Assembly: GCA_964536485.1 (NCBI GenBank)
Contig: CAZHXX010000004.1
Location: forward strand, 25,457-89,456
Direction: 5' to 3'
Length of the DNA: 64,000 nt
Source of the DNA: an uncultured Candidatus Saccharibacteria bacterium
GTDB lineage: Bacteria > Patescibacteriota > Saccharimonadia > Saccharimonadales > SZUA-47
Part shown: one piece after another, positions 916-61,300 of the stretch
Layout of the letters: every line of letters begins with the position of its first letter
Numbering within the stretch: the first letter of the stretch is position 1
Made by a program: the position numbers and the translations under genes
The notes under the pieces: model-generated
The model's database searches: none
What the model was told of the DNA's origin: nothing
What the model saw: the letters and a program-made list of their open reading frames with translations, nothing else

Positions 916-921
916 GCTGAT

Positions 922-18615: not shown

Positions 18616-19332
18616 ATGCAAAAAGAAGACTTTATCACGTGGGCACGAAAGCTACAAGAAACTTACAATGCCAGTGATCAAGTTCGCGCGCAACTCTCTC
18701 AGGTGGATCTGCTGGCGATTGTGGGGCCAACAGGAGTTGGTAAAACAACCATCATAAATGAACTAGATGTCCCAGCGGTCATGAGCGATGTTACTCGCAA
18801 CATGCGACCAGACGAAAAAAATAATCAAAACTATCATTTTCGTGAAGATTATCTCGGTATTCTTCAAGAAATAAAAAACGGCTTGTTTGCACAATTTGTT
18901 GTCAGCGATGCAGGGGATTTCTATGGTACGCATATAGATGCCTATCCCACAAAAGACTGGTGCAGTATGGCCATTTTTGCAGATGCAATTCCTAGTTTTC
19001 GACAACTAGGCTTCCGAAAGGTGGTGCCTGTGTATATTATGCCCCCTGGCTATGTGGAGTGGATGCGACGTGTTGGTGCACAGCGCGAAGCGGATATTAC
19101 GAGTCGAATTGCTGAGGCAATTAAGTCCATTAAGACAGCGTTGCTTGACCCTGAGTATCATTTTGTATTGAACGATAGCTTGGAGCTTGCAGTGAAAGAC
19201 GTCAAGAAAATCATGGCAGGAGAACTACCCGATGAGCATCGTGCGCGACTCGCAAGAGAAACTGCTGATATTCTTTTAGAGCGTCTCGGCGACCAAGACG
19301 ACACAATGTACTTCTCAAACGAAGCTGAATAA
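18616..19332 (+). CDS. Guanylate kinase-like P-loop kinase, paralogue 1
   Basis: P-loop GPTGVGKTT. Gmk-like segment SDVTRNMRPDEKNNQNYHF...FYGT. Confidence 0.6.
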   Translation: MQKEDFITWARKLQETYNASDQVRAQLSQVDLLAIVGPTGVGKTTIINELDVPAVMSDVTRNMRPDEKNNQNYHFREDYLGILQEIKNGLFAQFVVSDAGDFYGTHIDAYPTKDWCSMAIFADAIPSFRQLGFRKVVPVYIMPPGYVEWMRRVGAQREADITSRIAEAIKSIKTALLDPEYHFVLNDSLELAVKDVKKIMAGELPDEHRARLARETADILLERLGDQDDTMYFSNEAE

Positions 19333-19346
19333 TTTATACTTACAAA

Positions 19347-20066
19347 ATGGAAGAGACGACAAAACAAACACTTACCGCGCTTCATGCAGCAGTTGCATCC
19401 TATGCTATGCCCGAACCGGCTAGAGCTTTGGTTGCTTCAGGGCAAGTAACGCTTCTGTGCGGGGTTACCGCATCAGGCAAGAATACAATCGCAAACTATT
19501 TAGTCGACCATGGTAATTATCAGCACGTTGTTTCGCATACGACTCGTTTGCCGCGCGAAAACCATGGAGTGCTCGAACAGAATGGTAAAGAATACTGGTT
19601 TGTGAACTCTGAACAAATGCTTGAACTTGTCGAAAACAAAGCATTTATAGAGGTTAAAGCGATTCATGGAGACACCTGTTATGGCACAAGCATTGAAGCT
19701 GTGAAGGTAGTCGTGGAAGCCGGTATGCATCCTGTGATGGAAATAGACGTGCAGGGAGCACTTGAATTGACCGAAGCAGTTCCAGGCCTAAGGCCACTGT
19801 TTATTTTGCCTCCAAGTTATGAAGTGTGGATGGAGCGTCTTGGCTCACGAGGCTTTATAAGCGATGGCGAAAAAATGCGTCGCTTAAGAAGCGCAAGCAT
19901 GGAAATAGAGACTGCACTCGACCACCCTGCATTCCTGCTTACCGTCAATCATGAGGTAGAGCTTACCGCTGCAGAAATCATCCGAGGCATCGACCTTAGT
20001 GCTGACACGCAGGCACACTACAGGCAACTCGCCAAAGACTTACTAGAAGCAATCCGAAGTATCTAA
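19347..20066 (+). CDS. Guanylate kinase family protein, paralogue 2 (the more canonical one)
   Basis: P-loop GVTASGKNT. Gmk signature SHTTRLPRENHGVLEQNGKEYWFV...CYGTS. Confidence 0.65.
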   Translation: MEETTKQTLTALHAAVASYAMPEPARALVASGQVTLLCGVTASGKNTIANYLVDHGNYQHVVSHTTRLPRENHGVLEQNGKEYWFVNSEQMLELVENKAFIEVKAIHGDTCYGTSIEAVKVVVEAGMHPVMEIDVQGALELTEAVPGLRPLFILPPSYEVWMERLGSRGFISDGEKMRRLRSASMEIETALDHPAFLLTVNHEVELTAAEIIRGIDLSADTQAHYRQLAKDLLEAIRSI

Positions 20067-20264: not shown

Positions 20265-21692
20265 TTAGCTCCTTGTTAGTCTTTGTAATTTGTTGAAAAG
20301 TAGTGGGTTTGTTTCGGCAATTTTGCTGTACCAGTTCTCTATTGAGCGCGCTATAGACTCAGTATCTGAAGACCAAGCATTTGTTGAATTTTTCAGCCCA
20401 TTTTTTTGTACATAATCGACACAATTGCTGTATACCTTAGCCATTACATCTGGCTTTAAGGAAAAGCTCTCGAGCATTCGGTTAAACGTGCCAGCGCCAA
20501 CTTGCATTTCGCCCGCGTCAAACACTATATCTAAACCAAAGGAATTATTTTCGTTTATCACATTTATAAAAAGCTCGCGAATTCGGGCGTCGTTTAGGTA
20601 GAAAATTACGTCAGCATCATTTTTTCTGTTTTCAAATTTTTGTTTTGCATAATCTTTTATCTTGTACATGTAGTTTTTCTCGCTACTACTATCAACCGCT
20701 CTCAAAGCTCGGTAAAGGTCTGGTGCGTAAAAGTGAAATATTGCCTCAAAAAACTTATCAAAGTCAAAATTACCTTTATAAAATTGGTCATAGCAAGAGA
20801 CAAGGTCAAAAAACGCTGATCGGTTCCTTGGTGCTTGAGCAGTAATGCCAAAGTCTATAAGTCCAATCTTTGTGCCACCCTCAAGAAGCATGAGATTCCC
20901 AGGATGGGTGTCAGCGTGGACGTACTCTCCGTTTAGCGTGCTTAGTAATGACTGCGTGCCAAGTTCAGTTAGGAGACCGACAAAATCTTTATTTTCGGTA
21001 ATAGGTGTCTGATCAACAATGAGTTCGGTAAAGGGGATGCCAAAAAGTCGCTCTTGTACGATAATGTTTTTTGAGCAAAGCTCTAGATATGTATTAGGGA
21101 TAACTATGGTTGGATGACTCTTGAACTTTTCATGGAGGAGCTGAGCTTTATTAACTTCTTGAAGATAGTTAATTTCGTCTTTCGTAGTTTTAATAAATTG
21201 CTTTACAATTTCGTTAATTGGAAACTCTTGGTACTTAGAAAAAGTACGTACAAATAGGCTTACGATTTTGATCATCTTATGATCAAAGCCAATAAACTTT
21301 TCAACAGAAGGGCGAAGAACCTTTATGACAACAGGTTTTTCGTAGTAAGTAGCCCCGTAAACTTGAGCGAAAGAACCAGCTGCTATTGGCTCTGTACTGG
21401 TTAGTGACACATGGGAATTATTGATTTTCTGTAAGATTCTTTTAATATCAATTTGTTCGTAAGGAACTTGGTCAAAAACATGATAGATATGCTCAGAAGA
21501 CTTATTCAAAAATCCATCCTTAAGTACTAGTACTTGTAGAAACTTGACGTAAATCCCTCCAAGCTCTGAAAGTCGTACATAAATAAGATCAGGAATTTTT
21601 TCTTTTTTCCCGCTGAGAGAGAAAAGTAGCATGTCGGTTATGAGAGACATTATTGATGAAAATCTGTTTAATTTTTGACCAAATAAGCTCAT
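20265..21692 (-). CDS. ABC1/UbiB (AarF) atypical protein kinase family
   Basis: 475 aa. Motifs: IAAGSFAQVYGA...VVIKVLRP (nucleotide-binding Lys), HADTHPGNLML, IGLIDFG. Confidence 0.75.
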   Translation of the reverse strand: MSLFGQKLNRFSSIMSLITDMLLFSLSGKKEKIPDLIYVRLSELGGIYVKFLQVLVLKDGFLNKSSEHIYHVFDQVPYEQIDIKRILQKINNSHVSLTSTEPIAAGSFAQVYGATYYEKPVVIKVLRPSVEKFIGFDHKMIKIVSLFVRTFSKYQEFPINEIVKQFIKTTKDEINYLQEVNKAQLLHEKFKSHPTIVIPNTYLELCSKNIIVQERLFGIPFTELIVDQTPITENKDFVGLLTELGTQSLLSTLNGEYVHADTHPGNLMLLEGGTKIGLIDFGITAQAPRNRSAFFDLVSCYDQFYKGNFDFDKFFEAIFHFYAPDLYRALRAVDSSSEKNYMYKIKDYAKQKFENRKNDADVIFYLNDARIRELFINVINENNSFGLDIVFDAGEMQVGAGTFNRMLESFSLKPDVMAKVYSNCVDYVQKNGLKNSTNAWSSDTESIARSIENWYSKIAETNPLLFNKLQRLTRS

Positions 21693-32280: not shown

Positions 32281-32655
32281 ATGTTCTCGCTAGTAACACT
32301 TGGTAAAAAAGTAGGTATTCTCTTCGTCATCACGGTGCTGAGTGCCGTTACTAATTTTTATGCACCTTCCTCATATTCTTTTGTTCCAAACCAAGGGTTA
32401 AAAACAGAATCGCGTCTACATTCATCAGGCCAGCAGATTTGTGACCAGACATGCACGGTAAATACTCAAGGGAGCTATAGCCGTTCGTCAGCGACGCTGG
32501 CCCTCCTTGATGAATCGGTGGCCTCAATACCTCCAGGTAGTCTCATTGTCGGAGTAGCTGTGCTGTGCGTAGCCGTGTATAGCTACACGCGCAAAAAGTA
32601 TGTTTTTTACAGCTTGCGTAACTTTCAGCAAGCCTATTGTTTATGGAGATTTTGA
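32281..32655 (+). CDS. Hypothetical membrane protein (124 aa)
   Basis: N-terminal and C-terminal hydrophobic segments. No family recognised. Confidence 0.45.
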   Translation: MFSLVTLGKKVGILFVITVLSAVTNFYAPSSYSFVPNQGLKTESRLHSSGQQICDQTCTVNTQGSYSRSSATLALLDESVASIPPGSLIVGVAVLCVAVYSYTRKKYVFYSLRNFQQAYCLWRF

Positions 32656-32700: not shown

Positions 32701-33852
32701 ATGATCTATGTAGTTTCAAGAGTAGTAAGTGGTGCTTACCGCTTTATCGCAAAACCTATTTTGTTTAGATTCTCACCGGATGGCGTGCATGAAACGATGA
32801 TACGCACCGGAAACTTCTTACAAAAGAGTAAGCTTTTTTGTAAGATTACGCATAAAACACTTGCCTATGACGACCCTGTGCTACGTACAACGATACTCGG
32901 GGTGGAGCTACGCAATCCGCTTGGACTTAGTGCTGGGCTGGACAAAGATGCAAAAATTGTCAGTATGGCTCAAGCCATTGGGTTTGGGTTTATCGAATGC
33001 GGGTCAGTAACGTATGAGCACTATGAAGGTAATAAAAAACCCTGGTACACACGGCTCCCAAAAAGTCGTTCGATAATTGTAAACTCGGGCCTAAAGAGTG
33101 AGGGTGCTCGAGCGGTTATTGAGCGGGCAAAAAGCTATCCGCAAGACATGCTAAAAAGCTTTCCTCTTAATGTCTCAATCGCCAAAACTAACAGTAAAAA
33201 TACCGCAACAAAACAGCAAGGCATCGATGATTATGTCGCGTCATTCGAACTGTGGGAGAAGACGGGAAATGCCCGTTACTATACGATAAATATATCTTGC
33301 CCAAACACTTTCGGGGGCGAGCCTTTTACTACCCCTGAAGATCTGGAGGATTTGCTTCGGGCAGTAGATAAATTGCGCGTCCGTCGTCCGGTATTTGTCA
33401 AGTTCCCTATAGACAAAAGTTGGGCCGAAACAAAGAAATTACTTGATGTTTGCGCCCGTCATGCTGTGCAGGGTATTACTTTGGGAAATTTGTACAAAGA
33501 CAGAAAGACAGTGAAGCTAGAAGAGAGCTTTGATGTGTCGATAAAGGGTAATTTTAGTGGGAAGCCTTGTTGGGAAAAGTCCAATGAGCTACTAAAAAAG
33601 ATGTATGCTGAGTATAGCGACAGGTTTGTGTTTAGCGGAGTGGGTGGAGTATTTACCGCAGAAGATGCCTATACAAAGATTCGTTTAGGTGCTTCAGTTG
33701 TTGAGTTTGTCACCGGGCTCATATTCCAGGGTCCAGCGGTTGTAGGGCAAATGAATAGAGAGCTGGCTCTTCTGCTCAAGCGAGATGGATTTGCGCACGT
33801 GGCAGATGCAGTTGGTGTAGATGTAAAAAAAATTAAGGAGAAAAAGAAATGA
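32701..33852 (+). CDS. pyrD: Dihydroorotate dehydrogenase homologue, class 2-like with a divergent active site
   Basis: It aligns by eye to E. coli PyrD: NPLGLSAGLDKDAK, GFGFIECGSVT, INISCPNT (E. coli has INISSPNT), SGVGGV, GASVVEFVTGLIFQGP. The class-2-type N-terminal extension is present. Confidence 0.75.
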   Translation: MIYVVSRVVSGAYRFIAKPILFRFSPDGVHETMIRTGNFLQKSKLFCKITHKTLAYDDPVLRTTILGVELRNPLGLSAGLDKDAKIVSMAQAIGFGFIECGSVTYEHYEGNKKPWYTRLPKSRSIIVNSGLKSEGARAVIERAKSYPQDMLKSFPLNVSIAKTNSKNTATKQQGIDDYVASFELWEKTGNARYYTINISCPNTFGGEPFTTPEDLEDLLRAVDKLRVRRPVFVKFPIDKSWAETKKLLDVCARHAVQGITLGNLYKDRKTVKLEESFDVSIKGNFSGKPCWEKSNELLKKMYAEYSDRFVFSGVGGVFTAEDAYTKIRLGASVVEFVTGLIFQGPAVVGQMNRELALLLKRDGFAHVADAVGVDVKKIKEKKK

Positions 33853-34475
33853 CAATAACATCCGTAAAAAAATGGTGGGCCAAACATATACAGGCAAAGA
33901 AGCTTTTCCCGTTTTTCCTTATCTTCTTTGGGCTTCTAGGAATGCTTGCCTCTGGGGCTATCGCCATCGAAAAAGAGCATTTGCTTAAACATCCCGAAGT
34001 GGAGCTTATTTGTAATATTAACCCCGTATATTCATGTAGCAACGTTTTCATGTCTCCTCAATCGCAGATTCTTGGGGTAAGTAATGAGTATATTGGAATC
34101 GCAATTTTTGCCGTCTTGCTCACGGTCGGCGTAGTGGTGCTAGCGGGCGCGAAGCTAAAAAATTGGTTTTGGTATGCTTTTCTTGCTGGGATGCTCGGGT
34201 TCATGATGATGGTGCTATGGTTTTTTAGGCAGTCGGTGTATGTTATTGGGTCTTTGTGTATATTTTGTTCTATCGTGTGGTTCTCGGCTTGGGCCATAAC
34301 AACAAGTGGCTTTTGCTGGATGTACGATAATGGGTATCTGAGTGGGCTTAAAAAATACGATAAAGTCCTCTCTCTTATCCGTAGGAATAGTGTGCTTATC
34401 TGGTTCTTGTTCATCGTAACGCTAGCGGGGCTAATTCTTAAACACTTCTGGTACTACTACGGTCAGTATTTTTAA
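33849..34475 (+). CDS. Vitamin K epoxide reductase (VKOR) family protein
   Basis: Loop Cys pair CNINPVYSC and a TM CXXC motif (CIFC), with 4-5 TM segments. ATGA overlap with the pyrD-like stop. Confidence 0.8.
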   Translation: MTITSVKKWWAKHIQAKKLFPFFLIFFGLLGMLASGAIAIEKEHLLKHPEVELICNINPVYSCSNVFMSPQSQILGVSNEYIGIAIFAVLLTVGVVVLAGAKLKNWFWYAFLAGMLGFMMMVLWFFRQSVYVIGSLCIFCSIVWFSAWAITTSGFCWMYDNGYLSGLKKYDKVLSLIRRNSVLIWFLFIVTLAGLILKHFWYYYGQYF

Positions 34476-34490
34476 TTCTTTACATAAATA

Positions 34491-34519
34491 TTGACAATTA
34501 GTAAAAAATAATATACAAT
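34491..34519 (+). promoter_or_regulatory. Near-consensus promoter
   Basis: TTGACA (34491-34496), a 17-nt spacer, then TACAAT (34514-34519). Confidence 0.55.
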
Positions 34520-40063: not shown

Positions 40064-40140
40064 TGGAGGGCCCAGTGAGACTTGAACTCACGACACCCTG
40101 CTTAAAAGGCAGGTGCTCTAACCAGCTGAGCTATGGGCCC
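40064..40140 (-). tRNA. tRNA-Lys (UUU)
   Basis: Reverse complement: GGGCCCATAGCTCAGCTGGTTAGAGCACCTGCCTTTTAAGCAGGGTGTCGTGAGTTCAAGTCTCACTGGGCCCTCCA. It forms a perfect cloverleaf with anticodon loop CTTTTAA and an encoded CCA. Confidence 0.95.
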
Positions 40141-40223: not shown

Positions 40224-40688
40224 TCAATGCCTGCGTCCCCTCACGAGACTCGGATGTGATGCTTTTATCTTTTTATTGTTCGAGGGCGTCGCGAATTGCA
40301 AAAAAGCAGGTTTCGGCGTATAGTCACTCCTAAAAAGTAGCGGGTTTGCATCGTTAAGCCCAATGCCGTTATACCAGCTTTGTCTATCGATGAGACCAAG
40401 AAAGCCAAAATTAGGGCATACGATTGGTCCGACTTCGAGGCAAGCGCCAAGCATATCGCTATATATTTTTGCCTGCTTCTCATCTTTTTGCTTGTCAGTC
40501 CCCTCAACGTCATGCATATTCACATCAAACTCTGCTACATAGACTTTTATTCCAAGGCCTGCGAATCTTCGCATATTCTGCACAACAGCATCTTTGGTAG
40601 ACGCATACAACAATCGTAGATGTCTATGGTCTGAATGCTCTGTAAGAATAGCTACAGGGTGAGTGAGCAGACATACCTCAGTTAAACA
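40224..40688 (-). pseudogene. Remnant of a glycoside hydrolase family 10 (xylanase-like) gene, C-terminal half only
   Basis: RRFAGLGIKVYVAEFDV resembles the GH10 nucleophile region (..ITELDI). FGFLGLIDRQSW and PLLFRSDYTPKPAF resemble the GH10 C-terminus. The frame is open only from 40688, has no ATG, and lacks the N-terminal half. Confidence 0.45.
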
Positions 40689-45115: not shown

Positions 45116-45772
45116 TTATTGTCCTCCCTTCTTTTCGGTGCTTGCCTGTGCTGCGGCGTCTGCTGCTGCCTTTTTTGCTGCTTCGGCAGCCGCAGCTTTC
45201 CGAGCTGCTTCCGCCGTTCCGGTGAAGCTTGCTGTAATAGAGGCATTCGCTTGGTAAGCAGGAATACTTCCGTCAGAGTTTGTTCCTCCTTTTGGAGTGA
45301 GCGTTGCTATGTCGGCTGCTTCAAACAGCTTTGAATCAACCAAGTTACGTATGGTGACTGGGCCCAAATCGGCAGTTCGCAAATCTACATCTAATTTAAG
45401 TGGGTCGGTGACACCGCCAGTTAGCGTCAGGGCATTAAGCACTACTCCATCTGGGAGTACGGCAGCAATTTTAGGAATAAGCTCAGAAAAACTGACGGAC
45501 TTTGCCTTAATATTCTTTGCTGTCTCGAGTCGCGTAGCTATAGATTCAATGGATTGTATGTCTTTTTCTAACAATGTAATTTCGTCTTGGCTCGTCTGTA
45601 GCTTTGTGCGCAGAGAGGGTTCGTCGGAGCCCACAAATTGAATTCCGGCAATCATAATACCAGCAGTAACAACGGCGGTTGCTAAGAGCGCAATGCTATA
45701 GCCAAAAAGCGAAATATTTTTTCTTCCATAGCGACGTGCTTCTTTTACTTGAGGAGGGAGAAGATTAATCAT
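45116..45772 (-). CDS. pilN: Type IV pilus assembly protein PilN-like
   Basis: MINLLPPQVKEARR N-terminus (PilM-binding motif) followed by a TM segment. 4-nt overlap with pilM. Confidence 0.7.
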   Translation of the reverse strand: MINLLPPQVKEARRYGRKNISLFGYSIALLATAVVTAGIMIAGIQFVGSDEPSLRTKLQTSQDEITLLEKDIQSIESIATRLETAKNIKAKSVSFSELIPKIAAVLPDGVVLNALTLTGGVTDPLKLDVDLRTADLGPVTIRNLVDSKLFEAADIATLTPKGGTNSDGSIPAYQANASITASFTGTAEAARKAAAAEAAKKAAADAAAQASTEKKGGQ

Positions 45773-46830
45773 TTCATAAGCTCCTGTGCCTTCACCATGC
45801 TAAGCCCGCTTGCGGTTGTATACATAGTTGTCTCTAGTTCGTGTGGAGGTTGAAGTTTTCCAAAAGAGATGTTGTTCCAGGGTGCACAAAGACGTGTTGG
45901 TACGCGAGTTTTGTCAGTGATAAAGGTACTTAGGCCTGGGAGATTTGCGCCACCTCCAAGAATAATAATTTGACCGATTGAACTCCCTACAGACTCTCTG
46001 TCGGCAAAGTAACGCATCACTTTACGAATCTCGGTGATAAGTTTATTGAGCTCTGGTTCAGCAGCCTTCACAATCTTGTCTTGCTTTTTACTTAGTTCAA
46101 GACCGTAACGAGTTTTTATGCCGTGCGCTTGTTGCAGGCTAACGCCGAGCGCTTCTGCAATGTGTTGTGTGATACGCTCACCGGAGCAATCAACGGTCCC
46201 CGTAGCACGAATCGCAGACCCATCATAGATTGATAGGTCGCAGGCACTTGATCCTATATCAACGATAAGAGTAGGGACATCATGTGCTTCTGCATGGACA
46301 ACAATTCGTGTGACGGCAGAGATATTTGACTCTATGAGTCCAACTTCTAGCCCAAGAGCATTAAACACCACAAGATATGAATCTATGATAACCTTAGGGC
46401 AAGCAACTACCTGAACCTCTATCTCACCGTTATCTCGCTCTTCCACGATGCCATAGTCGTAGTAGAGGTCTTCAAGTGCCATAGGGATTGATTGGTCTAC
46501 TTCGAGCTGAACAGCACTGGCAAGGTCTGATTTAGACATAGCAGGAAGCGTAAGCGCTCGACTAAAGCTATGGGCGTTAGGGAGTGAGATAGCGGCATGC
46601 CTCGTAGTAAGCTTACCTACAAGGTTTTTCTCGATAAGTTCGTAGGCGACTTTTATGATAGCTTCCGGATCGACGATGACACCATCTTTGATTGCGAGTG
46701 GGTCAAAAGTTGCAGTGCCGTATCCAGAAACTACAGCGCCCTTTTTTGTCTGCATGACCTGCATTATCTTGATAGTGCTTCGTCCAATATCGAAGCCAAA
46801 CATTGGTTTATCTTGGTAAAAAATGCCCAT
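45769..46830 (-). CDS. pilM: Type IV pilus assembly protein PilM (actin-like ATPase fold)
   Basis: FGFDIGRSTIKIMQV, VDIGSSACDLSI, ILGGGANLPGL. Confidence 0.85.
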   Translation of the reverse strand: MGIFYQDKPMFGFDIGRSTIKIMQVMQTKKGAVVSGYGTATFDPLAIKDGVIVDPEAIIKVAYELIEKNLVGKLTTRHAAISLPNAHSFSRALTLPAMSKSDLASAVQLEVDQSIPMALEDLYYDYGIVEERDNGEIEVQVVACPKVIIDSYLVVFNALGLEVGLIESNISAVTRIVVHAEAHDVPTLIVDIGSSACDLSIYDGSAIRATGTVDCSGERITQHIAEALGVSLQQAHGIKTRYGLELSKKQDKIVKAAEPELNKLITEIRKVMRYFADRESVGSSIGQIIILGGGANLPGLSTFITDKTRVPTRLCAPWNNISFGKLQPPHELETTMYTTASGLSMVKAQELMK

Positions 46831-46933
46831 CCCAGTATGTTCTTCTTCTCAATCCTTTATCAGTGGATTAGTGTTAGTCTTTAAGCATAAGTATAACGTA
46901 AAAAAACAAAAGACGCGAATGCTAAAAGCTTCA

Positions 46934-46966
46934 AATTAAAAACCCGCTCGTAGTTGAGCGGGTTTT
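46934..46966 (-). terminator. Intrinsic terminator after the pilin gene
   Basis: aacccgctc-gtagtt-gagcgggtt with T-runs on both strands, 18 nt beyond the pilin stop. Confidence 0.75.
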
Positions 46967-46983
46967 TGTAGAACCTAGTAAGT

Positions 46984-47445
46984 TTAGTTCAAACTAGTCT
47001 TAGAGTAAGCTGATTCCTTTTCAAGGTAAGCCTTCAAAACGTATTTGCCACAAGAGTGACCTGTTGCAGGTGTTGCACAGTTGCTATAGCCAGCATATGC
47101 GTACTCGTTATCGTTATCAACAGTTGGGCTTGGTGCATTAGTACTTGCAGTAAATGTTGAAGCAATCGTGTCACCATCAGCATCAAGCAACGCACCCTGG
47201 TCTATACCTGCAAACGTTCCAGCTGCAAGCGCTGAATCTGGGTAACCACCTTGTTCGTTATAGTACTCTTCAAGTTTCTGGTACAAGCTGTTAATGTCAT
47301 TCTTTCGAACAGTGTCACGTCCTTTTGCTTGTGCACCTTGGAAGTTCGTAAGAACTAAGGTTGCCAAGATACCGATAATAGCAATCACGATCAAGAGCTC
47401 GATGATTGTAAAACCGGCTTGTAGATTCTTTTGTAGTTTGAGCAT
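46984..47445 (-). CDS. pilA: Type IV pilin
   Basis: Class III signal MLKLQKNLQAG|FTIIELLIVIAIIGILA with Glu+5. C-terminal Cys pair (NCATPATGHSC). Confidence 0.92.
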   Translation of the reverse strand: MLKLQKNLQAGFTIIELLIVIAIIGILATLVLTNFQGAQAKGRDTVRKNDINSLYQKLEEYYNEQGGYPDSALAAGTFAGIDQGALLDADGDTIASTFTASTNAPSPTVDNDNEYAYAGYSNCATPATGHSCGKYVLKAYLEKESAYSKTSLN

Positions 47446-47518
47446 TGGAGCCCACCTCCTTGTGTTAATTATAAAGCGTTCTTTTACGTTATTACTTAGT
47501 AAAAGGCTTATGGTTAAG

Positions 47519-47547
47519 AGTATCTACGACTCGTCCTTGGGTGTCAA
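47519..47547 (-). promoter_or_regulatory. Putative pilin promoter
   Basis: On the minus strand: TTGACA (reverse complement of 47542-47547), a 17-nt spacer, then GATACT (reverse complement of 47519-47524). A strong SD aaggaggtg precedes the ATG. Confidence 0.55.
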
Positions 47548-47566
47548 GTTTTTTTTAATGTTTGGG

Positions 47567-48784
47567 CTAGATTTTGTTGGCGAGAGAGCTGATAGGACCA
47601 ATGACGCTTACTGCAATTAGCCCAACCATACCACCCATAACCACAATCAAAATAGGCTCCAGAATTGAACTAAGTCCGTCGACTGCCGCATCAACCTCTT
47701 CTTCGTAAAAGTCGGCTACTTTTACAAGGACAGTATCTGTCTGACCGGTCTCCTCTCCAATACTAAGCATTTGACTGACGATAGGAGGGAAGACGGCGCT
47801 TTTGCTGAGTGACACACTTAAAGGTTCGCCATTTGCTACACTTTTTGCACCATCAAGAAGTTCTTTTTCTACGACCGCGTTACCAACTGCTTTTGCCGTA
47901 ATCTCGAGTGAGTCAAGCACCGTTACCCCTGCGCCCATAAGACTAGCGAAGATACGCGAGAACCGCGCAACAATAATTTTCGTGACAATGATATTGATGC
48001 CAGGCAACTTTAAGAGTAGCTGATCTCTTGTTTTTCTTCCGCGAGGAGTTTTAAGAAACTTACGCAAATAAATAGCCGTTCCAACCACAACTCCAACGTG
48101 GATAAACCAAAAATTAATCAGAACATGGCTTATACCAAGCATTACTTTGGTAATAGTAGGCAGGTCGCCACCCGTAAGATCTGCAATAATGGTGCCAACT
48201 TTTGGCACCACTACGGTCATGAGGGCAATAAACACGAGTACCGTAATCGTAATAAGCACCATTGGGTAAGTCATAGCGGACTTAAATTTTGCCCGAATTG
48301 CGGCATCTTTCTCTTGTTGGATGGCAAGCTTTTTTAGAATTTCGTCTAGAATACCCCCTGCTTCACCAGCGCGGATCATGTTGACGTAAATAGGATTGAA
48401 CGCATCACTATGTTTTTCAAGCGCATCTGCAAATGCCATACCACCCTCGACGTCTTTGCTAATTTGGGTAAGGTGTTTTTTTAAGCCCGCACTCTCCGTC
48501 TGAGCATGCATCGTTGAGAGGCTACGAACAAGCGGAACCCCGGCGTTGATCATGGTAGCAAGTTGGCGAGTGAAGATGACGAGATCTTTTGGTTTTACCT
48601 TGTTGCTTTTGTCGAGAAAACCTATGTGTATTTCGCCCTTTTTCTTCTGAACTTTTTTTATGACCAGCGGCTTAAGCCGGAGACGAACCAATGAACTACG
48701 CGCTGCATTTTCATCTGCAGCCTCTAAAACGCCAGAGTGCTGTTTTTGATCTTCGCCGGTTGCAGTATATTCAAATTTAGCCAC
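47567..48784 (-). CDS. pilC: Type IV pilus platform protein PilC (GspF family)
   Basis: 405 aa with two T2SSF repeats and 3 TM segments. Confidence 0.9.
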   Translation of the reverse strand: MAKFEYTATGEDQKQHSGVLEAADENAARSSLVRLRLKPLVIKKVQKKKGEIHIGFLDKSNKVKPKDLVIFTRQLATMINAGVPLVRSLSTMHAQTESAGLKKHLTQISKDVEGGMAFADALEKHSDAFNPIYVNMIRAGEAGGILDEILKKLAIQQEKDAAIRAKFKSAMTYPMVLITITVLVFIALMTVVVPKVGTIIADLTGGDLPTITKVMLGISHVLINFWFIHVGVVVGTAIYLRKFLKTPRGRKTRDQLLLKLPGINIIVTKIIVARFSRIFASLMGAGVTVLDSLEITAKAVGNAVVEKELLDGAKSVANGEPLSVSLSKSAVFPPIVSQMLSIGEETGQTDTVLVKVADFYEEEVDAAVDGLSSILEPILIVVMGGMVGLIAVSVIGPISSLANKI

Positions 48785-48799
48785 GATATATCATCCTTG

Positions 48800-50593
48800 T
48801 TATTCTCGGGTTACTCGTAAGATTTCTTCTATAGTGGTCATGCCGAGGAGCGCTTTTATAAGGCCATCAAGTTGCATAGTAACCATACCTTCTTTAATGG
48901 ACTGAGCTTGAATCTCTTCGCTGGTGCCGTTGCTTACGATGAGTTTCTGAACTTGTTCAGTATTCTTGAGTACTTCATAAATACCCATTCTTCCTTTGTA
49001 GCCTGTTCGATCGTTTGGAAGATCTGCCTTTGGCCTCCAGAGCACTAGCTTGCTTGTCTTTGGCTTGCCAAAATGTTCCTGAGCTTCCTGAAGTAACTTA
49101 AAGATAACGTCCCAGTCTGCCTTTGTTTTGATGCCAAACACTCGCTCAATTTCTTTTCTTTCTTCTTCGCTTGGCGTGTACTGCTCGCAATCCTCTGCAA
49201 TTAAACGGCGCACCAGTCGTTGCCCAATCACCACCCGGACGACACTAGCAATAAGAAATGGCTCAATGTTCATGTCGAGGAGACGCGGAAGGCAGGTTGC
49301 AGCGTTGTTTGTGTGCAAGGTACTAAACACAAGGTGACCAGTCAAAGCTGCTTGCACGCCAAGACCAGCCGTTTCACCATCGCGAATCTCTCCCACCATA
49401 ATAATGTTCGGATCTTGACGGAGTAGAGCGCGGAGTCCGGCGACAAATGTCATGCCCGCTACTGGGTTTACTTGGGTTTGGTTAACACCCTCAAGCTTAT
49501 ATTCAACTGGATCTTCGATGGTGCTGATGTTGACATCGGGTTTATTGAGTATGTGAAGGACGCTGTGAAGCGTCGTGGACTTTCCAGATCCTGTTGGGCC
49601 GGTGACTAAGATCATGCCGTGTGGCTGAATACTTGCTTCTTGAATGTCGTGAAGAGCTTTGCCCCAGAAACCAAGTGTCTCTAGGCTTAGCGGTTCACTT
49701 GACTCATCAAGCACACGCATGACGACCTTTTCACCCTCAGTTATAGGCAGTGTAGACACACGAAACGCAAATATTCGACCATTCAATGAAATTTTAAACC
49801 GACCATCTTGTGGCGCACGGCGCTCGTCAATTTTAAGGTTAGACAAAATCTTAATACGCGACACTAAAGCGCTCAGGGTTCGCTTAGGAAGACGATTTGC
49901 TTCGCGCAAGACACCATCTACTCGGTAGCGAATAAGCACTTGTTTGTCGCGAGGCTCAATATGTATATCGCTCGCGCCAGACTTAATTGCATATTCTATG
50001 ATGAGATTGACCGTTTGTGCGATAGGGGAATCTTCAGCTATGTCTTCTTCAGTAATGTCCTCGTCATCATCCTCGTCGTCATCTTTTCCATCGGTAACTA
50101 TTTTTGATATTTCGTTGCCAATATTGCCTCGATACTGGTCAAGCACCGACAAAATATTAAAATGAGTTGCGATAAAAATCTTAATCTTTTGGCCAAAGAG
50201 CTTGTGAAGCACATCGAGCGCTTGAAGATCGTCAGGGTCTTCCATGGCGATGGAGCGAGGTTCTTCTTTGTCGTCAAGTGAGCCTTCAAATACCACCATG
50301 TTGTAGAGCTTTGCAATGTGTTCTGGAAGTTGTTTTAGAACTTCTTTACTGACTTCTTTTGCATTTATTTCGACGAACGGAACGCCAATTTCGTCAGCGT
50401 ATGCTTGTACAAGCTCTGAGTCGCTCATAACGTTTTGTTTTGTTATGAGCTCAGATAGATCAATTTTTTCGGTTTTTGCTTGTTCGAGCAGGGTAGCAAT
50501 TTTGTCATCGTCAAAAGCCCCACTTTTATGGAGTATCTCTACGACAGTTGACTCTGGAATTCTCATCTTTTGTATTTGGCGATACGAAGCCAC
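48800..50593 (-). CDS. pilB: Type IV pilus assembly ATPase PilB (GspE family)
   Basis: Walker A GPTGSGKSTT, Asp box, Walker B IMVGEIRD, His box, and an acidic linker DDDEDDDED. Confidence 0.92.
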   Translation of the reverse strand: MASYRQIQKMRIPESTVVEILHKSGAFDDDKIATLLEQAKTEKIDLSELITKQNVMSDSELVQAYADEIGVPFVEINAKEVSKEVLKQLPEHIAKLYNMVVFEGSLDDKEEPRSIAMEDPDDLQALDVLHKLFGQKIKIFIATHFNILSVLDQYRGNIGNEISKIVTDGKDDDEDDDEDITEEDIAEDSPIAQTVNLIIEYAIKSGASDIHIEPRDKQVLIRYRVDGVLREANRLPKRTLSALVSRIKILSNLKIDERRAPQDGRFKISLNGRIFAFRVSTLPITEGEKVVMRVLDESSEPLSLETLGFWGKALHDIQEASIQPHGMILVTGPTGSGKSTTLHSVLHILNKPDVNISTIEDPVEYKLEGVNQTQVNPVAGMTFVAGLRALLRQDPNIIMVGEIRDGETAGLGVQAALTGHLVFSTLHTNNAATCLPRLLDMNIEPFLIASVVRVVIGQRLVRRLIAEDCEQYTPSEEERKEIERVFGIKTKADWDVIFKLLQEAQEHFGKPKTSKLVLWRPKADLPNDRTGYKGRMGIYEVLKNTEQVQKLIVSNGTSEEIQAQSIKEGMVTMQLDGLIKALLGMTTIEEILRVTRE

Positions 50594-55349: not shown

Positions 55350-56423
55350 ATGGAATACAAACACACGACAAAAATGGCGCCACGAGCAGCAGAGCGTATA
55401 AAAAAATACGATGCCTATATTAGACGTGATTCGCAGGCACAATATAGCCGTCGAGCACGGGTTCCTGTAGACAGCCTGTCGGGTCGTATTCGCGCGGTTT
55501 CAGCTTCGGATAAAGCTTCTTCTCCTGTAAATATGCCGTCGCCTCGTCCTGCTATGGCAAAGGAAGGTGCAGTTATAGCTAGCTCATTGAGGGCTACGCG
55601 TAAGAATACACCATATACACCTATGAGTATTGCACAGCAGGTTGCGCTATTCTCGGTGCACCAAGCTAAAGCAAGCCGACAGGATATTCTGGCAGAGGAG
55701 TTCTCTGGGAGTTATCAAGAAATTCCAGCACGAAGACAAAAATTATCACGTACTCAAAAACTTTTTTATGGTGCAGGGACGCTCGTCTTTTTATTCGCCT
55801 TTGGCGTGAGCATTCAGGGTATCATTATGAATCAACAAGCAAAAGAGAAGATAGGAGTACTTGGTGCGCAAACCCAAAAACCTGATGAATACGGGGTTCC
55901 AGAGGGTAGTGGTGACCAGCCAGCTGAGGCAGCCGTGTCAAAATCTGCGCTGGCCGCTTATAACGTGAGCCCCGAACTGCCTAGGTATCTGCGTATTCCC
56001 GAGCTCGGAGTCTTTGCTCGCATTAAGCACACGGGGGTCACGCAAGATGGCGCAATTGATGCCCCAAAGAACATCAACGATGTAAGCTGGTATGACCAGA
56101 GTGCGCAACCAGGGAGCGAAACGGGTTCGTCATTACTTCTGGGACATGTATCAGGGTGGACGGCACCAGGTGTTTTTAAAAAAATCAATCAGCTAAAATC
56201 GGGCATGCGCTTCGAGATAGAGAAGGGTAGCGGAGAGAAGATTACCTATGAAGTAACCCATGGTGAGAGTATTCCGCTCGACATTTTAAATATGGGGAAA
56301 ATATTAACACCCGAGGTCACAGGAGAACACGACTTGAAGCTAATGACTTGTGCTGGTCGGTTTAACCGTGAAGCTGATAGGTTTGAAGAGCGGTATGTGG
56401 TCTACGCAAAAATAGTGCGCTAA
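55350..56423 (+). CDS. Sortase-family transpeptidase with a long N-terminal extension
   Basis: Catalytic His (LLLGHVSG), Cys (LKLMTCAG) and Arg (ERYVVYA). One TM segment at about aa 140, preceded by about 135 basic residues. Confidence 0.8.
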   Translation: MEYKHTTKMAPRAAERIKKYDAYIRRDSQAQYSRRARVPVDSLSGRIRAVSASDKASSPVNMPSPRPAMAKEGAVIASSLRATRKNTPYTPMSIAQQVALFSVHQAKASRQDILAEEFSGSYQEIPARRQKLSRTQKLFYGAGTLVFLFAFGVSIQGIIMNQQAKEKIGVLGAQTQKPDEYGVPEGSGDQPAEAAVSKSALAAYNVSPELPRYLRIPELGVFARIKHTGVTQDGAIDAPKNINDVSWYDQSAQPGSETGSSLLLGHVSGWTAPGVFKKINQLKSGMRFEIEKGSGEKITYEVTHGESIPLDILNMGKILTPEVTGEHDLKLMTCAGRFNREADRFEERYVVYAKIVR

Positions 56424-58353: not shown

Positions 58354-61300
58354 TTGTTGCAAAAAAAGAGACTATTTGGAGGGCTATTTGTACTATTGTC
58401 GTTGCTGGCAGTTGTGCTTATTGTTGCACTAAGGCCAGTGAAGGTCCCTGTTAATGGGCTGTTGCGTCAGTCCAACGGAACTCCTGTGAGTGACGGATAT
58501 TATGACCTGCGCGTTGTCGGGTTTAATGCCCAGAGCGGGTTGCAGACTATAGAGCAGGACTTTCAAGATGTGTTTGTGAGTAGTGGCCAGTATGAGGTGC
58601 CGGTAAATTTGAATCGTTTTTCTGCGACAGGAGATACTTATCTCCAGATTTGTCGTACCGAGGTACCTACTTCTGCTAAGGATGGCATCGAGACCAATGT
58701 GCCGGACGGCTGTAAACAACCAGTCGAGGAGAAGGACACCTTCACATACGCTGAATGTCCACAGACTATCTCCATTAATGCCGCAGGTGGTCTTGCGCGG
58801 CTTCTCGGTGAAAGACAGGCATCACTCTTCAGTCAGTGTGTCTATGAAGCAAAAGATACTTCAGGGAACGATCTTCCTTTGGCTCCTTCTGAAGCGCAGC
58901 AGCCAAGTGTCGTGGCGCTAAAAGGCGACAAAGGAGATACTGGTGAAGCTGGGCTTTCCGGTGAAACTGGATCTAAAGGTGAAACTGGTGAACAGGGTGC
59001 TCCTGGCAAAGATGGTGCTAATGGAGCCACGGGTGCAGCAGGCCCGGTAGGGCCAGTAGGGCCTCAGGGAGCAATAGGGCCGGCCGGCGATCCTGCTACA
59101 GACGACCAAACACTTTCTTTTGGAGGCGCGAGCATCCTTTCGATAGCTGGCGGTAATTCTGTTAGTCTCGCATCGCTTCTTGATAATACTGATACATTAG
59201 CAAGTTTATCCTGTGCGAATGGCCAGGTGGCGCAGTGGAACACGATTGCTTGGCAATGTGCTTCAGCATCGGTTGATACTGACCAGCAAACACTTGCAGT
59301 CATTGGTTCTGGTGCTGGAAGGCAACTTCAAATTTCTGGCGGTAATACTGTTGGGCTATCTGATAACGACACAACGTATAGCGCTGGAACAGGACTTACT
59401 TTAGCAGGAACAGCATTTTCGCTTGCGACTTCGGGGGTTAGTGCTGGAAGTTATGGCTCTGCAACACAAATACCAACGCTTACTGTGGATGCTCAAGGGA
59501 GAATTACCAGTGTTACAACTGCTACTATTACCGACGCCGACACTTTAGCTGGTCTTTCTTGCTCAAGCAACCAGGTTGCTAAGTGGAATGGGAGCGCATG
59601 GGTATGTGCAAATGATACAGACACCAACACTGACGCACAGACCCTGAATCTTTCTGTTAACACGTTAAGTATAAGTGGCGGAAACTCCGTGAATCTTGCG
59701 AGCTATCTCGATAACACTGACGCCCAAACGGTAAGTTATTCGACCGGTACCAAGCTCTTGTCTATTAGTGGGGGCAACACGGCAGATTTATCCTCTCTTT
59801 TAGATAACACTGATGCACAAGATTTGTCACTCACCTCAAATACACTCAGTCTTACAGGGGACGCTTCTACCGTTGATTTAACTCCTTACCTAGATAATAC
59901 CGATACACTCGCCAGTCTCTCCTGTTCGAGTGGTCAGGTAGCACAGTGGAATGGTTCTGTGTGGGTTTGTGCATCCGCCTCGGTTGATACAGACGACCAG
60001 ACTCTGAGCTACACAGCCGGTACACAAACGCTCACAATTTCAGAAGGGAATAGTGTTTTTCTTTCTAGTCTTCTCGACAACACCGATAGTCAAGCAATCT
60101 CACTGACCGGTAACACCTTGTCTATATCTGGTAATGTTGGCACTGTCGACCTCTCCGGTTACTTAGACGACACCGTCTTAAGCGAAGCCCAAGTAGATAG
60201 CTATGTCTCTAACAATGGCTACCTTACGAGTGAAGTTGATGGCAGTACGACCAATGAATTGCAAGACCTAAACCTCAGTGGCAATACACTCACTCTTACC
60301 GTCATCGGTTCCCCCACTAACATTGATCTTAGTCCTTACTTAGATAACACCGACACCCAAGACCTTAGTCTTATTGGCAATACACTTAGTCTTGTTGCTG
60401 GTGGTTCAGTAGATTTATCTGGCTACTTAGATAACACTGACGCACAAGATCTTACTCGCACTGGTAATATCTTGGCTCTCACTAATGACGCTGGTACGGT
60501 TGATCTCTCAGATCTTCTCGACAACACCGATAGTCAAAACCTCTTCTTCACTATTAACGCACCAAACGGTACTGACCCAACTGCAGACAGTGCAACCGAC
60601 ACGCTTAATCTTGCAGATGGTGCTGGCATTACCATCACAGGTGACAGCACTACGGATACGCTTACTATTGCGTCAGTATTAGGTACCAGCATAGACAGTA
60701 GCGAAATTACTGACGGTACTATTACCTTTGCAGACATTGCAAACAATAGTTGTGGAACTGATGAAATCTTTAAGTTTAATGGTTCTGCTTGGTACTGTGG
60801 CGCAGATAATGACACGGCAGTCTCAGAAGCAGCAGTTGAAGCCTTTATCTTTGACGCAGACAATACAGGGACACTCAGCTCAGGCACCCTCGCTCTTGGC
60901 TCACTCAGCTACACTGGCACCCTAAGTGATACTAACATTGCCGACGCTCTCACTATTAGTTCTTCTGGTTCTGTGGCTGACGGTGCACTTAGTGCCAATG
61001 TCTCACTGTTTGGTAGCTCAGTAGACTCTAGTGAGATTACCAATGGCACGGTGACTGGTACTGACCTTGCCAGTGCTACTATCCTCTTTAGCAATATTGC
61101 TCAGAACGGCTGCAGTGGCAACCAGATCATGAAGTGGAATGGCTCTGCCTGGGCTTGTGCCGCAGACGTTGACACTGACACTGATGCACAGAATCTCTTC
61201 CAGACACTTAATGCAGACAATGGTACCGACCCAGTTGCTGACAGTGCCACCGACACACTTAACTTGGTCAGTGGAGCAGGAGTCACTATTACTGGCGACA

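Follow-up and report, generated by a model that had tools for sequence, protein, structure and literature searches.

The locus considered here lies in a 64-kb stretch of DNA (the window, by which we mean the whole stretch that was analyzed) from contig CAZHXX010000004.1 of an uncultured Candidatus Saccharibacteria bacterium, a member of the Patescibacteria or candidate phyla radiation (CPR). It comprises two genes on the forward strand, one coding for a 383-amino-acid (aa) flavin mononucleotide (FMN) enzyme related to the dihydroorotate dehydrogenases (DHODs) and the other for a 208-aa protein of the VKOR family (Table 1). The ATG of the VKOR gene (33849–33851) overlaps the TGA of the DHOD-like gene (33850–33852), and an AAGGAG Shine–Dalgarno sequence (33835–33840) is placed 8 nt before the VKOR start; this ATGA junction is a predicted site of translational coupling between the two genes. 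A first-pass annotation made from the letters alone had reported both open reading frames (ORFs), their overlap at 33849–33852, and a VKOR with a CNINPVYSC pair and a CIFC motif. The ORF list and the sequence agree exactly with the former, and the Pfam match and cysteine positions with the latter. The genome loci nearest to that of the window come from Saccharibacteria metagenome-assembled genomes (MAGs).

Table 1. Features of the window, with those of the gene pair first (TM, transmembrane segment; HMM, hidden Markov model; AF2, AlphaFold2 model; group C is defined in the text).
Feature	Position	Strand	Basis or remark
DHOD-like FMN enzyme, 383 aa, class 2 architecture, group C	32701..33852	+	ORF, HMM, alignment, AF2
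N-terminal helical domain, residues ~1–60	32701..32880	+	AF2 helices 2–21, 26–40, 44–54
His30, aligns with human His56, E. coli His19	32788–32790	+	96/97 Cys-clade sequences
Arg118, aligns with human Arg136, E. coli Arg102	33052..33054	+	97/97 Cys-clade, 21/21 Ser-clade sequences
Val127, at the place of the orotate-binding Asn (E. coli N111, human N145, L. lactis N67)	33079..33081	+	alignment column 436
N197-I-S-C200-P-N202 motif	33289..33306	+	Cys200 (33298–33300) at the catalytic-base position
Lys234, FMN-binding Lys (E. coli K217, human K255, L. lactis K164)	33400..33402	+	invariant in all groups
Asn263-Leu264	33487..33492	+	Asn kept (E. coli N246); Leu at the Thr/Ser place
Coupling junction (predicted)	33835..33852	+	AAGGAG 33835–33840, then ATGA 33849–33852
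VKOR-family thiol:quinone oxidoreductase (predicted), 208 aa	33849..34475	+	PF07884 107 bits, hydropathy
Loop Cys pair Cys55-x7-Cys63 (CNINPVYSC), first extracytoplasmic loop	34011..34037	+	
Active-site Cys137-Ile-Phe-Cys140 (CXXC), outer end of TM4	34257..34268	+	
Small membrane ORF, 124 aa, directly 5' of the DHOD-like gene	32281..32655	+	ORF, hydropathy
Promoter-like site TTGACA-17-TACAAT, 11/12	34491..34519	+	consensus match only
Pilus cluster pilM, pilin, pilC, pilB, and sortase	45772–50593 and 55350–56423	− and +	
Giant surface ORF, at least 1882 aa, running past the window end	58354–63999	+	collagen-type repeats

Profile searches unify the 383-aa protein with the DHO_dh family (PF01180, 183.7 bits) and, within it, with the class 2 or quinone-dependent DHODs: the best-scoring NCBIfam models are the class 2 models TIGR01036 (245.8 bits, cut-off 200) and NF003652 (282 bits, cut-off 267). 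The scores against the other eight class 2 sub-models fall below their cut-offs, and the class 1 models yield 49–68 bits versus cut-offs of 269–301 (e.g., TIGR01037, 64 versus 270; NF002702, 49.5 versus 301). Among solved structures, human DHODH is the best relative (E 1.5e-47), followed by bacterial class 2 enzymes, with the alignments beginning at residue ~13; the class 1A enzymes in the PDB are matched only at E ~1e-7 to 1e-8. An AF2 model of the protein (pLDDT 94.5, pTM 0.93) was compared with the human, Helicobacter pylori, and Mycobacterium tuberculosis class 2 enzymes using Foldseek, giving target-normalized TM-scores of 0.88–0.94 with the N-terminal helices included, in alignments of ~358–389 columns with full-length class 2 DHODH. 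The helical domain at the N-terminus is the modeled counterpart of the quinone-binding α1–α2 domain of the class 2 enzymes. Further, His30 and Arg118 align with residues of the quinone/inhibitor site of the human enzyme, including His56 and Arg136 (PMC7762340), such that the protein has an intact quinone-site signature and a predicted quinone site.

The active-site motif INISCPNT spans residues 196–203, and its Cys200 aligns with Ser175 of the E. coli enzyme, Ser215 of the human enzyme, and Cys130 of the Lactococcus lactis enzyme. Several further residues of the catalytic site are kept, namely Lys82 (E. coli K66), Asn197 (N172), Asn202 (N177), and Asn263 (N246), and the FMN-binding glycine motifs (Gly313–Gly316 and Gly344) are invariant. 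Two positions of the orotate site are changed: in addition to the Asn-to-Val change at residue 127, Leu264 replaces a residue that is T247 in E. coli, T285 in human, and S194 in L. lactis (alignment column 631), with TLGNLY standing where E. coli has IATNTT. The first-pass annotation had called the protein a class 2-type homolog inclusive of the N-terminal extension, which the HMMs, the alignment, and the structural comparisons bear out, and had pointed to the replacement of ATNTT by TLGNLY, which is likewise correct, with the Asn kept and the Thr changed. The altered orotate site that it described is thus real, but it had seen only the change at Thr247 and missed that of Asn111 to Val.

We then placed these changes in a wider alignment of the window protein with cluster representatives (96 of the Cys type and 9 of the Ser type), with ten PyrD proteins from genome loci of Proteobacteria and Actinobacteria, and with E. 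coli PyrD (L081), human DHODH, and L. lactis DHODA, whose sequence is 100% identical to 1DOR. It holds 97 full-length Cys-type sequences (window protein included) and 21 Ser-type sequences, and resolves the enzymes with class 2 architecture into three groups (residues in E. coli numbering). Group A, the canonical class 2 enzymes, has a Ser base together with K66, N111, R112, F115, N139, N172, N177, N246, T247, and Y318. Group B, which numbers 23 of the Cys-type sequences and is found in free-living bacteria including the Balneolaceae, has a Cys base and keeps N111, R112, N139, T247, and Y318. Group C, from the CPR and including the window protein, has a Cys base with Val/Ile at N111, Leu at T247, Ser at N139, Ile/Val at Y318, and Gly–Glu at Leu181–Arg182 of the class 2 enzymes. 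At column 436, Asn is found in all 21 Ser-type and all 23 group B sequences and in L. lactis, and Val/Ile in 74 of the 97 Cys-clade sequences; at column 631, all Ser-type and group B sequences have Thr, and 71 of the 97 have Leu. Asn111 and Thr247 are thus conserved across class 1A (Asn67 and Ser194 of L. lactis) and class 2, and lost only in group C. The Lys66 equivalent is retained in group C except in about a quarter of the clade, where it is Tyr.

Group C accounts for about three quarters of the 97 Cys-type sequences, and by its sequences it appears to be a large clade that is almost entirely of Patescibacteria. The Cys itself is present in all of the 120 closest homologs of the window protein, in 70 of 70 CPR genome loci, and in 137 of the 150 best cluster representatives at 50% identity. 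A neighbor-joining tree computed with the diagnostic columns removed separates the three groups and, with L. lactis as the root, branches as ((C,B),A), an order that is to be taken as provisional. Some group C genes, certain of them VKOR fusions or pairs, come from records labeled "uncultured Gammaproteobacteria" (L031, L036, L042–L044, L050, L055, L062, and L068), and two others carry "Woesearchaeota" labels (L052 and L066). Both sets of labels look doubtful; if the archaeal ones are right, the VKOR–DHOD module would extend to the DPANN archaea.

By the textbook rule, class 2 DHODs have a Ser base and class 1 DHODs a Cys base, and group B contradicts it. One group B protein, P0215 (L082:8001–9083), is encoded inside a pyrC-pyrBI-pyrE-pyrF-pyrD operon on a 3.7-Mb contig, and N-x-S-C-P-N is found in 118 of its 119 nearest homologs, including the PyrD proteins of cultured Rhodohalobacter, Fodinibius, and Aliifodinibius (P0411–P0469). 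A PyrD with class 2 architecture and a Cys base is therefore, as far as sequence and operon context can tell, an ordinary and apparently functional variant, and would constitute a large natural exception to the rule. A Cys base by itself is hence not diagnostic of a new function, and the case for one must rest on the changes in the pocket and on context. The emphasis that the first-pass annotation had laid on the Cys does not hold up, since group B combines it with the canonical orotate pocket; a frequent occurrence of Cys in ordinary class 2 PyrD enzymes is indeed one half of the outcome it had named as counting against its own reading. The notion that the Cys signals class 1-like chemistry, and hence no DHOD, was likewise dropped once group B was found.

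As regards class membership, the window protein shares with the class 2 DHODs the FMN TIM barrel, the N-terminal quinone domain, and a score above the HMM cut-off, and departs from them in the base (Cys200) and in the full orotate set (V127 and L264). Of these, the Ser base is a weak criterion for class 2, as the Balneolaceae PyrD also lacks it. Despite its Cys, the protein does not belong to class 1A, as it has the N-terminal domain and scores below the class 1 HMM cut-offs. We do not file it as PyrD notwithstanding its HMM scores, because it lacks the Ser base and the orotate set, and because the pathway context of a PyrD is missing from the window, from 70 CPR loci, and from the annotated genome of the cultivated Saccharibacterium described below.

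The product of the second gene matches PF07884 over profile positions 3–129 of 134. It has a Lys-rich N-terminus and about five hydrophobic segments by hydropathy, and the second Cys of the loop pair, Cys63, is followed by S-N-V-F-M-S. With both cysteine pairs in place, it is a canonical member of the VKOR family and is predicted to act as a thiol:quinone oxidoreductase. The scanned window proteins included none of the DsbA/MdbA type; the placement of VKOR next to an MdbA-like gene has already been noted in CPR, in connection with the MdbA–VKOR model of Actinomyces (PMC6744442).

We next ran an iterative VKOR profile over the six-frame ORFs of 70 CPR loci. The DHOD-like gene had a VKOR as its neighbor or fusion partner in 17 of the 70, or 18 of 71 with the window, compared to ~0.2 expected by chance (binomial p < 1e-27, ignoring shared ancestry); that the adjacency is not due to chance is strongly supported. 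The arrangements are diverse: the VKOR gene lies upstream on the same strand (L008, L023, L026, and L027), downstream on the same strand (L024, L039, L050, and the window, and likewise the close relatives L085–L089), convergently (L002), or divergently (L056), or the two form a single ORF of 515–545 aa (L043, L045, L047, L060, L062, L064, and L070). The ATGA overlap recurs in L024 and, with the order reversed, in L008, and there is a 4-nt overlap in L087. Within the subclade of the window (proteins 83%, 69%, and 63% identical), the overlap from the DHOD-like gene into the VKOR gene is kept even where the flanks differ. VKOR was the top neighbor in a census based on ORF clustering, and when the nearest genes were tallied by Pfam family it accounted for 9 of 135, with no other family exceeding 4. 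All the fused or adjacent DHOD-like proteins belong to group C (Cys with Val/Ile at N111 and Leu at T247), and VKOR is the sole recurrent genetic partner of this clade. The first-pass annotation had proposed adjacency in relatives as a test and its absence from all of them as counting against the pairing; what we found is conservation in several arrangements and in fusions.

The fusions unite an N-terminal VKOR with the DHO_dh domain, a combination seen in 9 of 10 long cluster representatives. When a Woesebacteria fusion was used as the query, all of the 120 best matches, which come from Woesebacteria, Roizmanbacteria, and other Microgenomates, carried both PF07884 and PF01180; there are thus at least 120 clusters of single-chain VKOR+DHO_dh proteins. 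In the genome loci we recognized seven clear fused ORFs, from Woesebacteria, Roizmanbacteria, WWE3, and others. An alignment of the 120 fusions (P0278 numbering) shows C36, C44, C116, and C119 of the VKOR part to be invariant, along with N334, S336, C337, P338, N339, K373, and N402 of the DHOD-like part. They display four hydrophobic segments; the Cys pair lies in the first of the outer loops, the CXXC is found where TM4 starts, and a linker rich in K/R comes after the last segment. The four-TM VKOR core has an N-in/C-in topology, and, consistent with this, the hydropathy places the flavoenzyme part on the cytoplasmic side. The AF2 model of a fusion is confident as one body (pLDDT 94.1, pTM 0.91), and its flavoenzyme part matches class 2 DHODH. 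In a Microgenomates-type subclade that includes most VKOR fusions, the Lys equivalent to E. coli K66 and human K100 is replaced by Tyr in a G-F-D-Y motif (e.g., P0278 Tyr222; also loci L035, L040, L042–L045, L047, L050, and others), which would imply a further change of substrate chemistry within group C.

A different case is a Saccharimonadales MAG with a 604-aa VKOR+DHO_dh ORF (L006:3221–5035), whose VKOR part is seemingly full length with five TM segments. With a fifth segment, the flavoenzyme would face away from the cytoplasm, and this "fusion" may be a frameshift artifact of an overlapped gene pair; it was excluded from the seven clear fusions and included in the 18 of 71. The databases name the fusions "quinone-dependent dihydroorotate dehydrogenase", with a few records reading "dihydroorotate dehydrogenase 2, nonfunctional". 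Searches of the literature on VKOR, DsbB, or CPR for any joint mention of DHOD returned only work on ferroptosis and unrelated papers, and the searchable literature holds no mention of a VKOR fused to an acceptor-side flavoenzyme.

Two further associations were observed among the relatives. One cluster representative (P0135, 550 aa) carries a PAP2 membrane phosphatase as an N-terminal fusion to its group C DHOD-like domain, and PAP2 genes lie beside the DHOD-like gene in about five loci (e.g., L025:5183–5842 and L016:5210–5869, both on the reverse strand), making PAP2 a second membrane-protein partner of the group C proteins. In L087, a gene for a DsbD_TM/AhpC-TSA/thioredoxin fusion (1–1367, reverse strand) and a thioredoxin gene are situated ~4 kb upstream of the DHOD-like–VKOR pair, so that this relative groups extracytoplasmic thiol-redox functions.

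The metabolic context of the pair was also investigated. As the first-pass annotation had claimed for pyrimidine-biosynthesis and respiratory genes, scans of the 64-kb window recovered none of these, nor any gene of quinone biosynthesis. Using the four proteins of the L082 operon as queries, we found no homologs of pyrB, pyrC, pyrE, or pyrF in the window or the 70 CPR loci; the sole match, in L052, is an ornithine carbamoyltransferase and not a pyr gene. The window does encode an atypical kinase of the ABC1/UbiB family (20265–21692, reverse strand; Pfam 121.9 bits), a family usually linked to quinone biosynthesis or handling. It is present although the window has no genes for quinone synthesis and the lineage is reported to lack it, and it does not recur beside the DHOD-like gene in the other loci compared.

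A cultivated Saccharibacterium, Southlakia epibionticum, permits a view of a complete genome. Its gene table lists SEML1_0225 as a "quinone-dependent dihydroorotate dehydrogenase" and has no gene annotated as a dihydroorotase, aspartate carbamoyltransferase, orotate phosphoribosyltransferase, or orotidine monophosphate decarboxylase; according to its authors, the organism has no nucleotide synthesis and no respiratory chain (PMC10633639). We infer that SEML1_0225 belongs to group C, as do all the Saccharibacteria loci analyzed here. A small thioredoxin-fold gene overlaps the start of its VKOR gene. In the transposon sequencing of this organism, the VKOR gene is essential (GD/ES/ES), and the DHOD-like gene is scored NE/GD/GD, with normalized reads that drop with passage (529, 119, and 61) (PMC10633639). 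These data are compatible with an important but non-exclusive route of quinone regeneration and discriminate weakly between the hypotheses considered below. More generally, CPR are reported to have no quinone synthesis of their own, and it has been suggested that they scavenge quinones (PMC8407418, PMC6031116).

The remaining genes of the window bear on the limits of the pair and on its possible clients. Around the pair are hrcA-grpE-dnaK, a Pif1 helicase, the 124-aa ORF, dnaJ, ATP-grasp genes, and ruvCAB. The 124-aa ORF has two hydrophobic segments with a CxxxC between them and no Pfam match; a homolog occupies the same upstream place at L009:5573–5941 (E 3.8e-15), and L085 and L086 have 124-aa genes in the equivalent position 5' of the DHOD-like gene. 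It may therefore form one transcription unit with the DHOD-like gene and VKOR. The promoter-like site 3' of the VKOR stop likely marks the start of the next unit (dnaJ), and the pair would end there. Farther away, the window encodes type IV pilus genes, a sortase, and the giant surface ORF. The pilin has an N-methylation motif and two Cys residues as a single C-terminal pair (123/132), and the pilus and sortase form a typical CPR surface apparatus and are likely clients of the VKOR pathway. The giant ORF has 20 Cys residues in 10 close pairs spaced 15–27 residues apart, and its product is presumably a disulfide-rich surface protein. The nucleotide-salvage genes of the window comprise two guanylate kinases, a NUDIX, and an HD gene. 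The guanylate-kinase-family paralogs lie in tandem (18616–19332 and 19347–20066, forward strand), with the first far more divergent (E 8.5e-9 versus 4.5e-25 for the second). Separately, a 129-aa ORF (40227–40613, reverse strand) that adjoins a tRNA gene (40067–40140, reverse strand) is similar to glycoside hydrolase family 10 over just the C-terminal third of the profile (215–308 of 311) and is probably a gene remnant.

Taken together, the recurrent adjacency, the Microgenomates fusions, and the quinone-site residues argue strongly for a functional pairing of the DHOD-like protein and VKOR, probably linked through quinone as the first-pass annotation had suggested; two enzymes, each with a predicted quinone site, are under selection for joint production or union in a single chain, in organisms reported to have neither a respiratory chain nor quinone synthesis. 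The interpretation that we favor by a little is that the pair is a self-contained electron outlet for extracytoplasmic disulfide formation that needs no respiratory chain, with the flavoenzyme re-oxidizing the quinol. In this scheme, VKOR would use its two cysteine pairs (loop pair and CXXC) to oxidize a thioredoxin-like partner or exported proteins, for which the window offers two candidates, the type IV pilin and the giant surface protein with its many Cys pairs. VKOR would hand the electrons to a membrane quinone, which the cell must scavenge because quinone synthesis is absent from CPR genomes. The DHOD-derived FMN enzyme, facing the cytoplasm, would bind the resulting quinol in its N-terminal quinone tunnel, re-oxidize it, and pass the electrons to a cytoplasmic acceptor other than orotate, with Cys200 as the proton donor; an enoate such as fumarate, or O2, are candidate acceptors. 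Quinone would thus mediate between the two enzymes, acting in series on one quinone, with the flavoenzyme working in the quinol-oxidizing direction. VKOR homologs move electrons from thiols to quinone, and a partner of such a quinone reducer would be expected to re-oxidize the quinol; as two quinone reducers without an oxidase make a dead end, the series arrangement is the most parsimonious. We give an even chance to the broader evolutionary proposition that a DHOD paralog has been turned into an FMN-dependent monotopic quinol:acceptor reductase, which with VKOR, as a gene pair or in one chain, forms a two-component trans-membrane redox module that is the terminal outlet of oxidative folding across much of the CPR.

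With respect to the acceptor, the orotate/dihydroorotate couple is far more negative than menaquinone or ubiquinone. Orotate as acceptor, i.e., a simple reversal of DHOD, is not credible on these thermodynamic grounds, and the loss of two orotate-contacting residues fits with such a reversal being unfavorable. The first-pass annotation had offered an enzyme running in reverse or on a different substrate; the former is disfavored and the latter is the viable half. A Cys acid/base is found in enzymes of the DHOD fold that reduce C=C bonds, namely class 1A (fumarate) and dihydropyrimidine dehydrogenase (uracil), and both fumarate and O2 are thermodynamically possible acceptors. Fumarate was considered specifically. 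Apart from the class 1A precedent, it has on its side only L052 (4880–8831, a "Woesearchaeota" MAG), where the neighbors of the group C gene are a malic enzyme and, in convergent orientation, a TfrA/FrdA/SdhA-like fumarate-reductase flavoprotein (594 bits, with the TfrA cut-off at 718). This one locus hints at a link to C4-dicarboxylates; the case for fumarate is weakened by the change of Lys66 to Tyr in the fusion clade.

Several observations weigh against a quinol-oxidizing outlet. Only about a quarter of the CPR loci have VKOR beside the DHOD-like gene, and in Southlakia the two genes are 42 kb apart, with loss of the DHOD-like gene causing only a growth defect and VKOR being essential. The protein passes the NCBI equivalog cut-offs for quinone-dependent DHOD and keeps most catalytic residues, and group B shows that a Cys is compatible with a normal DHOD. 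The strict bootstrap values of the tree are only 2–28% rooted and 14–26% unrooted, even with five rogue sequences removed. The Tyr at Lys66 in many fusions argues against a dicarboxylate acceptor such as fumarate in these proteins. Finally, transfer from quinol to a DHOD-type flavin would be uphill unless the flavin potential is shifted.

One alternative is that the protein is an ordinary quinone-dependent PyrD oxidizing dihydroorotate (e.g., host-derived) to orotate, with VKOR being nearby on account of a shared, scarce scavenged quinone or an accident of operon organization. The class 2 cut-offs that it exceeds, the retention of Lys82, Asn197, Asn202, Lys234, and Asn263 alongside the FMN and quinone motifs, and the occurrence of a Cys-type class 2 enzyme in a pyr operon all speak for it. 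We nevertheless regard it as unlikely: Asn111 is replaced by Val/Ile and Thr247 by Leu throughout the clade, there are no pyr genes nearby in the 71 loci, and with none of pyrB/C/E/F annotated in Southlakia, orotate would have no onward route. Moreover, two quinone reducers without an oxidase would give no turnover, and an accident would hardly account for a fusion that is stable across 120 or more protein clusters. Another scheme retains both enzymes as parallel quinone reducers, with the scavenged quinone kept as quinol to serve as a membrane antioxidant (cf. mammalian DHODH and VKOR/FSP1 in the suppression of ferroptosis) or to feed a cyo-type oxidase where there is one; it leaves the 1:1 fusion or translational coupling of independent reducers unexplained. 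The literature on DHODH and VKOR does converge on quinol-based lipid protection, some soil CPR have ubiquinol oxidase operons without quinone synthesis, and CPR have few defenses against oxidative stress. However, the altered pocket would require a further electron donor, and the fusion-bearing Microgenomates are mostly described in the literature as lacking oxidases, so that we consider this scheme about as improbable as an ordinary PyrD.

More doubtful is the idea that the DHOD-like protein is catalytically dead and only a quinone-holding or membrane-docking subunit for VKOR. It would account for the word "nonfunctional" in some NCBI annotations of the fusions, for the lost substrate-binding residues and the Lys66-to-Tyr change in one subclade, and for the need to somehow retain a scavenged quinone, but hundreds of divergent sequences share, without exception, N-x-S-C-P-N, the Lys that binds FMN, and the Gly-rich phosphate motifs, pointing to selection on catalysis beyond the N-terminal tunnel. 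The least probable of the schemes, to which we give very little credence, reverses the flow: the flavoenzyme would oxidize a cytoplasmic donor and reduce quinone, and VKOR would use the quinol to reduce extracytoplasmic disulfides or oxidized residues in a DsbD-like manner. Electron transfer from a donor to quinone is indeed the native direction of the class 2 DHODs, and L087 has DsbD_TM/thioredoxin genes 4 kb off. Yet transfer from menaquinol or ubiquinol to a disulfide is unfavorable, and it is established that the characterized VKOR/DsbB homologs all run from thiols to quinone (PMC6744442 for the Actinomyces model).

The CPR or Patescibacteria make up a large share of bacterial diversity and depend on disulfide-bonded pili and surface proteins for life on their hosts. 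In Southlakia, the one species for which transposon-sequencing data are available, VKOR is essential. How VKOR quinol is re-oxidized in the respiration-less members is a gap that the searchable literature does not address. The proposed outlet, if true, would explain how such pili and surface proteins are made in cells with neither a respiratory chain nor quinone synthesis. Further, the annotation "quinone-dependent dihydroorotate dehydrogenase" that is widespread in CPR is probably wrong as to function, and misleads metabolic reconstructions by suggesting an absent pyrimidine step or a respiratory quinone reductase. The natural single-chain VKOR–flavoenzyme proteins are also well suited to structural study of quinone exchange between two sites.

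In comparison with known systems, the window protein resembles the class 2 DHODs (E. coli PyrD, 1F76; human; M. tuberculosis, 8OFW) in fold and two-helix quinone domain, in the FMN-binding Lys and Gly motifs, in the quinone-site His and Arg, and in Asn172, Asn177, and Asn246. It differs from them in its Cys base, in the replacement of Asn111 by Val, Thr247 by Leu, Asn139 by Ser, Tyr318 by Val/Ile, and Leu181–Arg182 by Gly–Glu, in the absence of pyrimidine genes around it, and in its coupling or fusion to VKOR. With the group B PyrD of the Balneolaceae, its sister in the neighbor-joining tree, the CPR clade shares the class 2 architecture and N-x-S-C-P-N; unlike the window protein, group B keeps Asn111, Arg112, Asn139, Thr247, and Tyr318, has one member in a pyr operon, and shows no link to VKOR in the two contexts examined (L082 and L083). 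The class 1A DHODs (L. lactis PyrDa and the trypanosomatid enzyme) have the same Cys acid/base in N-x-S-C-P-N and, as dihydroorotate:fumarate oxidoreductases, set a precedent for a DHOD site with Cys reducing the enoate fumarate at that same site; in contrast to the window protein, they are cytosolic, have no N-terminal quinone domain, and keep Asn67 and Ser194.

On the side of VKOR, the four-TM core, loop Cys pair, and CXXC are those of the M. tuberculosis VKOR, the Synechococcus VKOR–thioredoxin protein, and the Actinomyces oris VKOR–MdbA system. The role of bacterial VKORs is to re-oxidize the thioredoxin-like oxidase of exported proteins, and in those systems the quinol is re-oxidized by the respiratory chain, unlike what is proposed here. 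Moreover, in the known VKOR fusions the partner is a periplasmic thioredoxin-like domain on the donor side, whereas here it is a predicted cytoplasmic flavoenzyme on the acceptor side. The closest functional parallel would be E. coli DsbB with menaquinone and fumarate or nitrate reductase, which is established to permit O2-free disulfide formation via quinol and a cytoplasm-facing reductase; there, general respiratory complexes are used, and here a single dedicated DHOD-derived FMN protein would serve. A flavin as the terminal outlet of oxidative folding in a compartment without a respiratory chain also recalls Ero1 and Erv/ALR, although these have other folds and use FAD with an adjacent CXXC, no quinone intermediate, and O2 as the acceptor.

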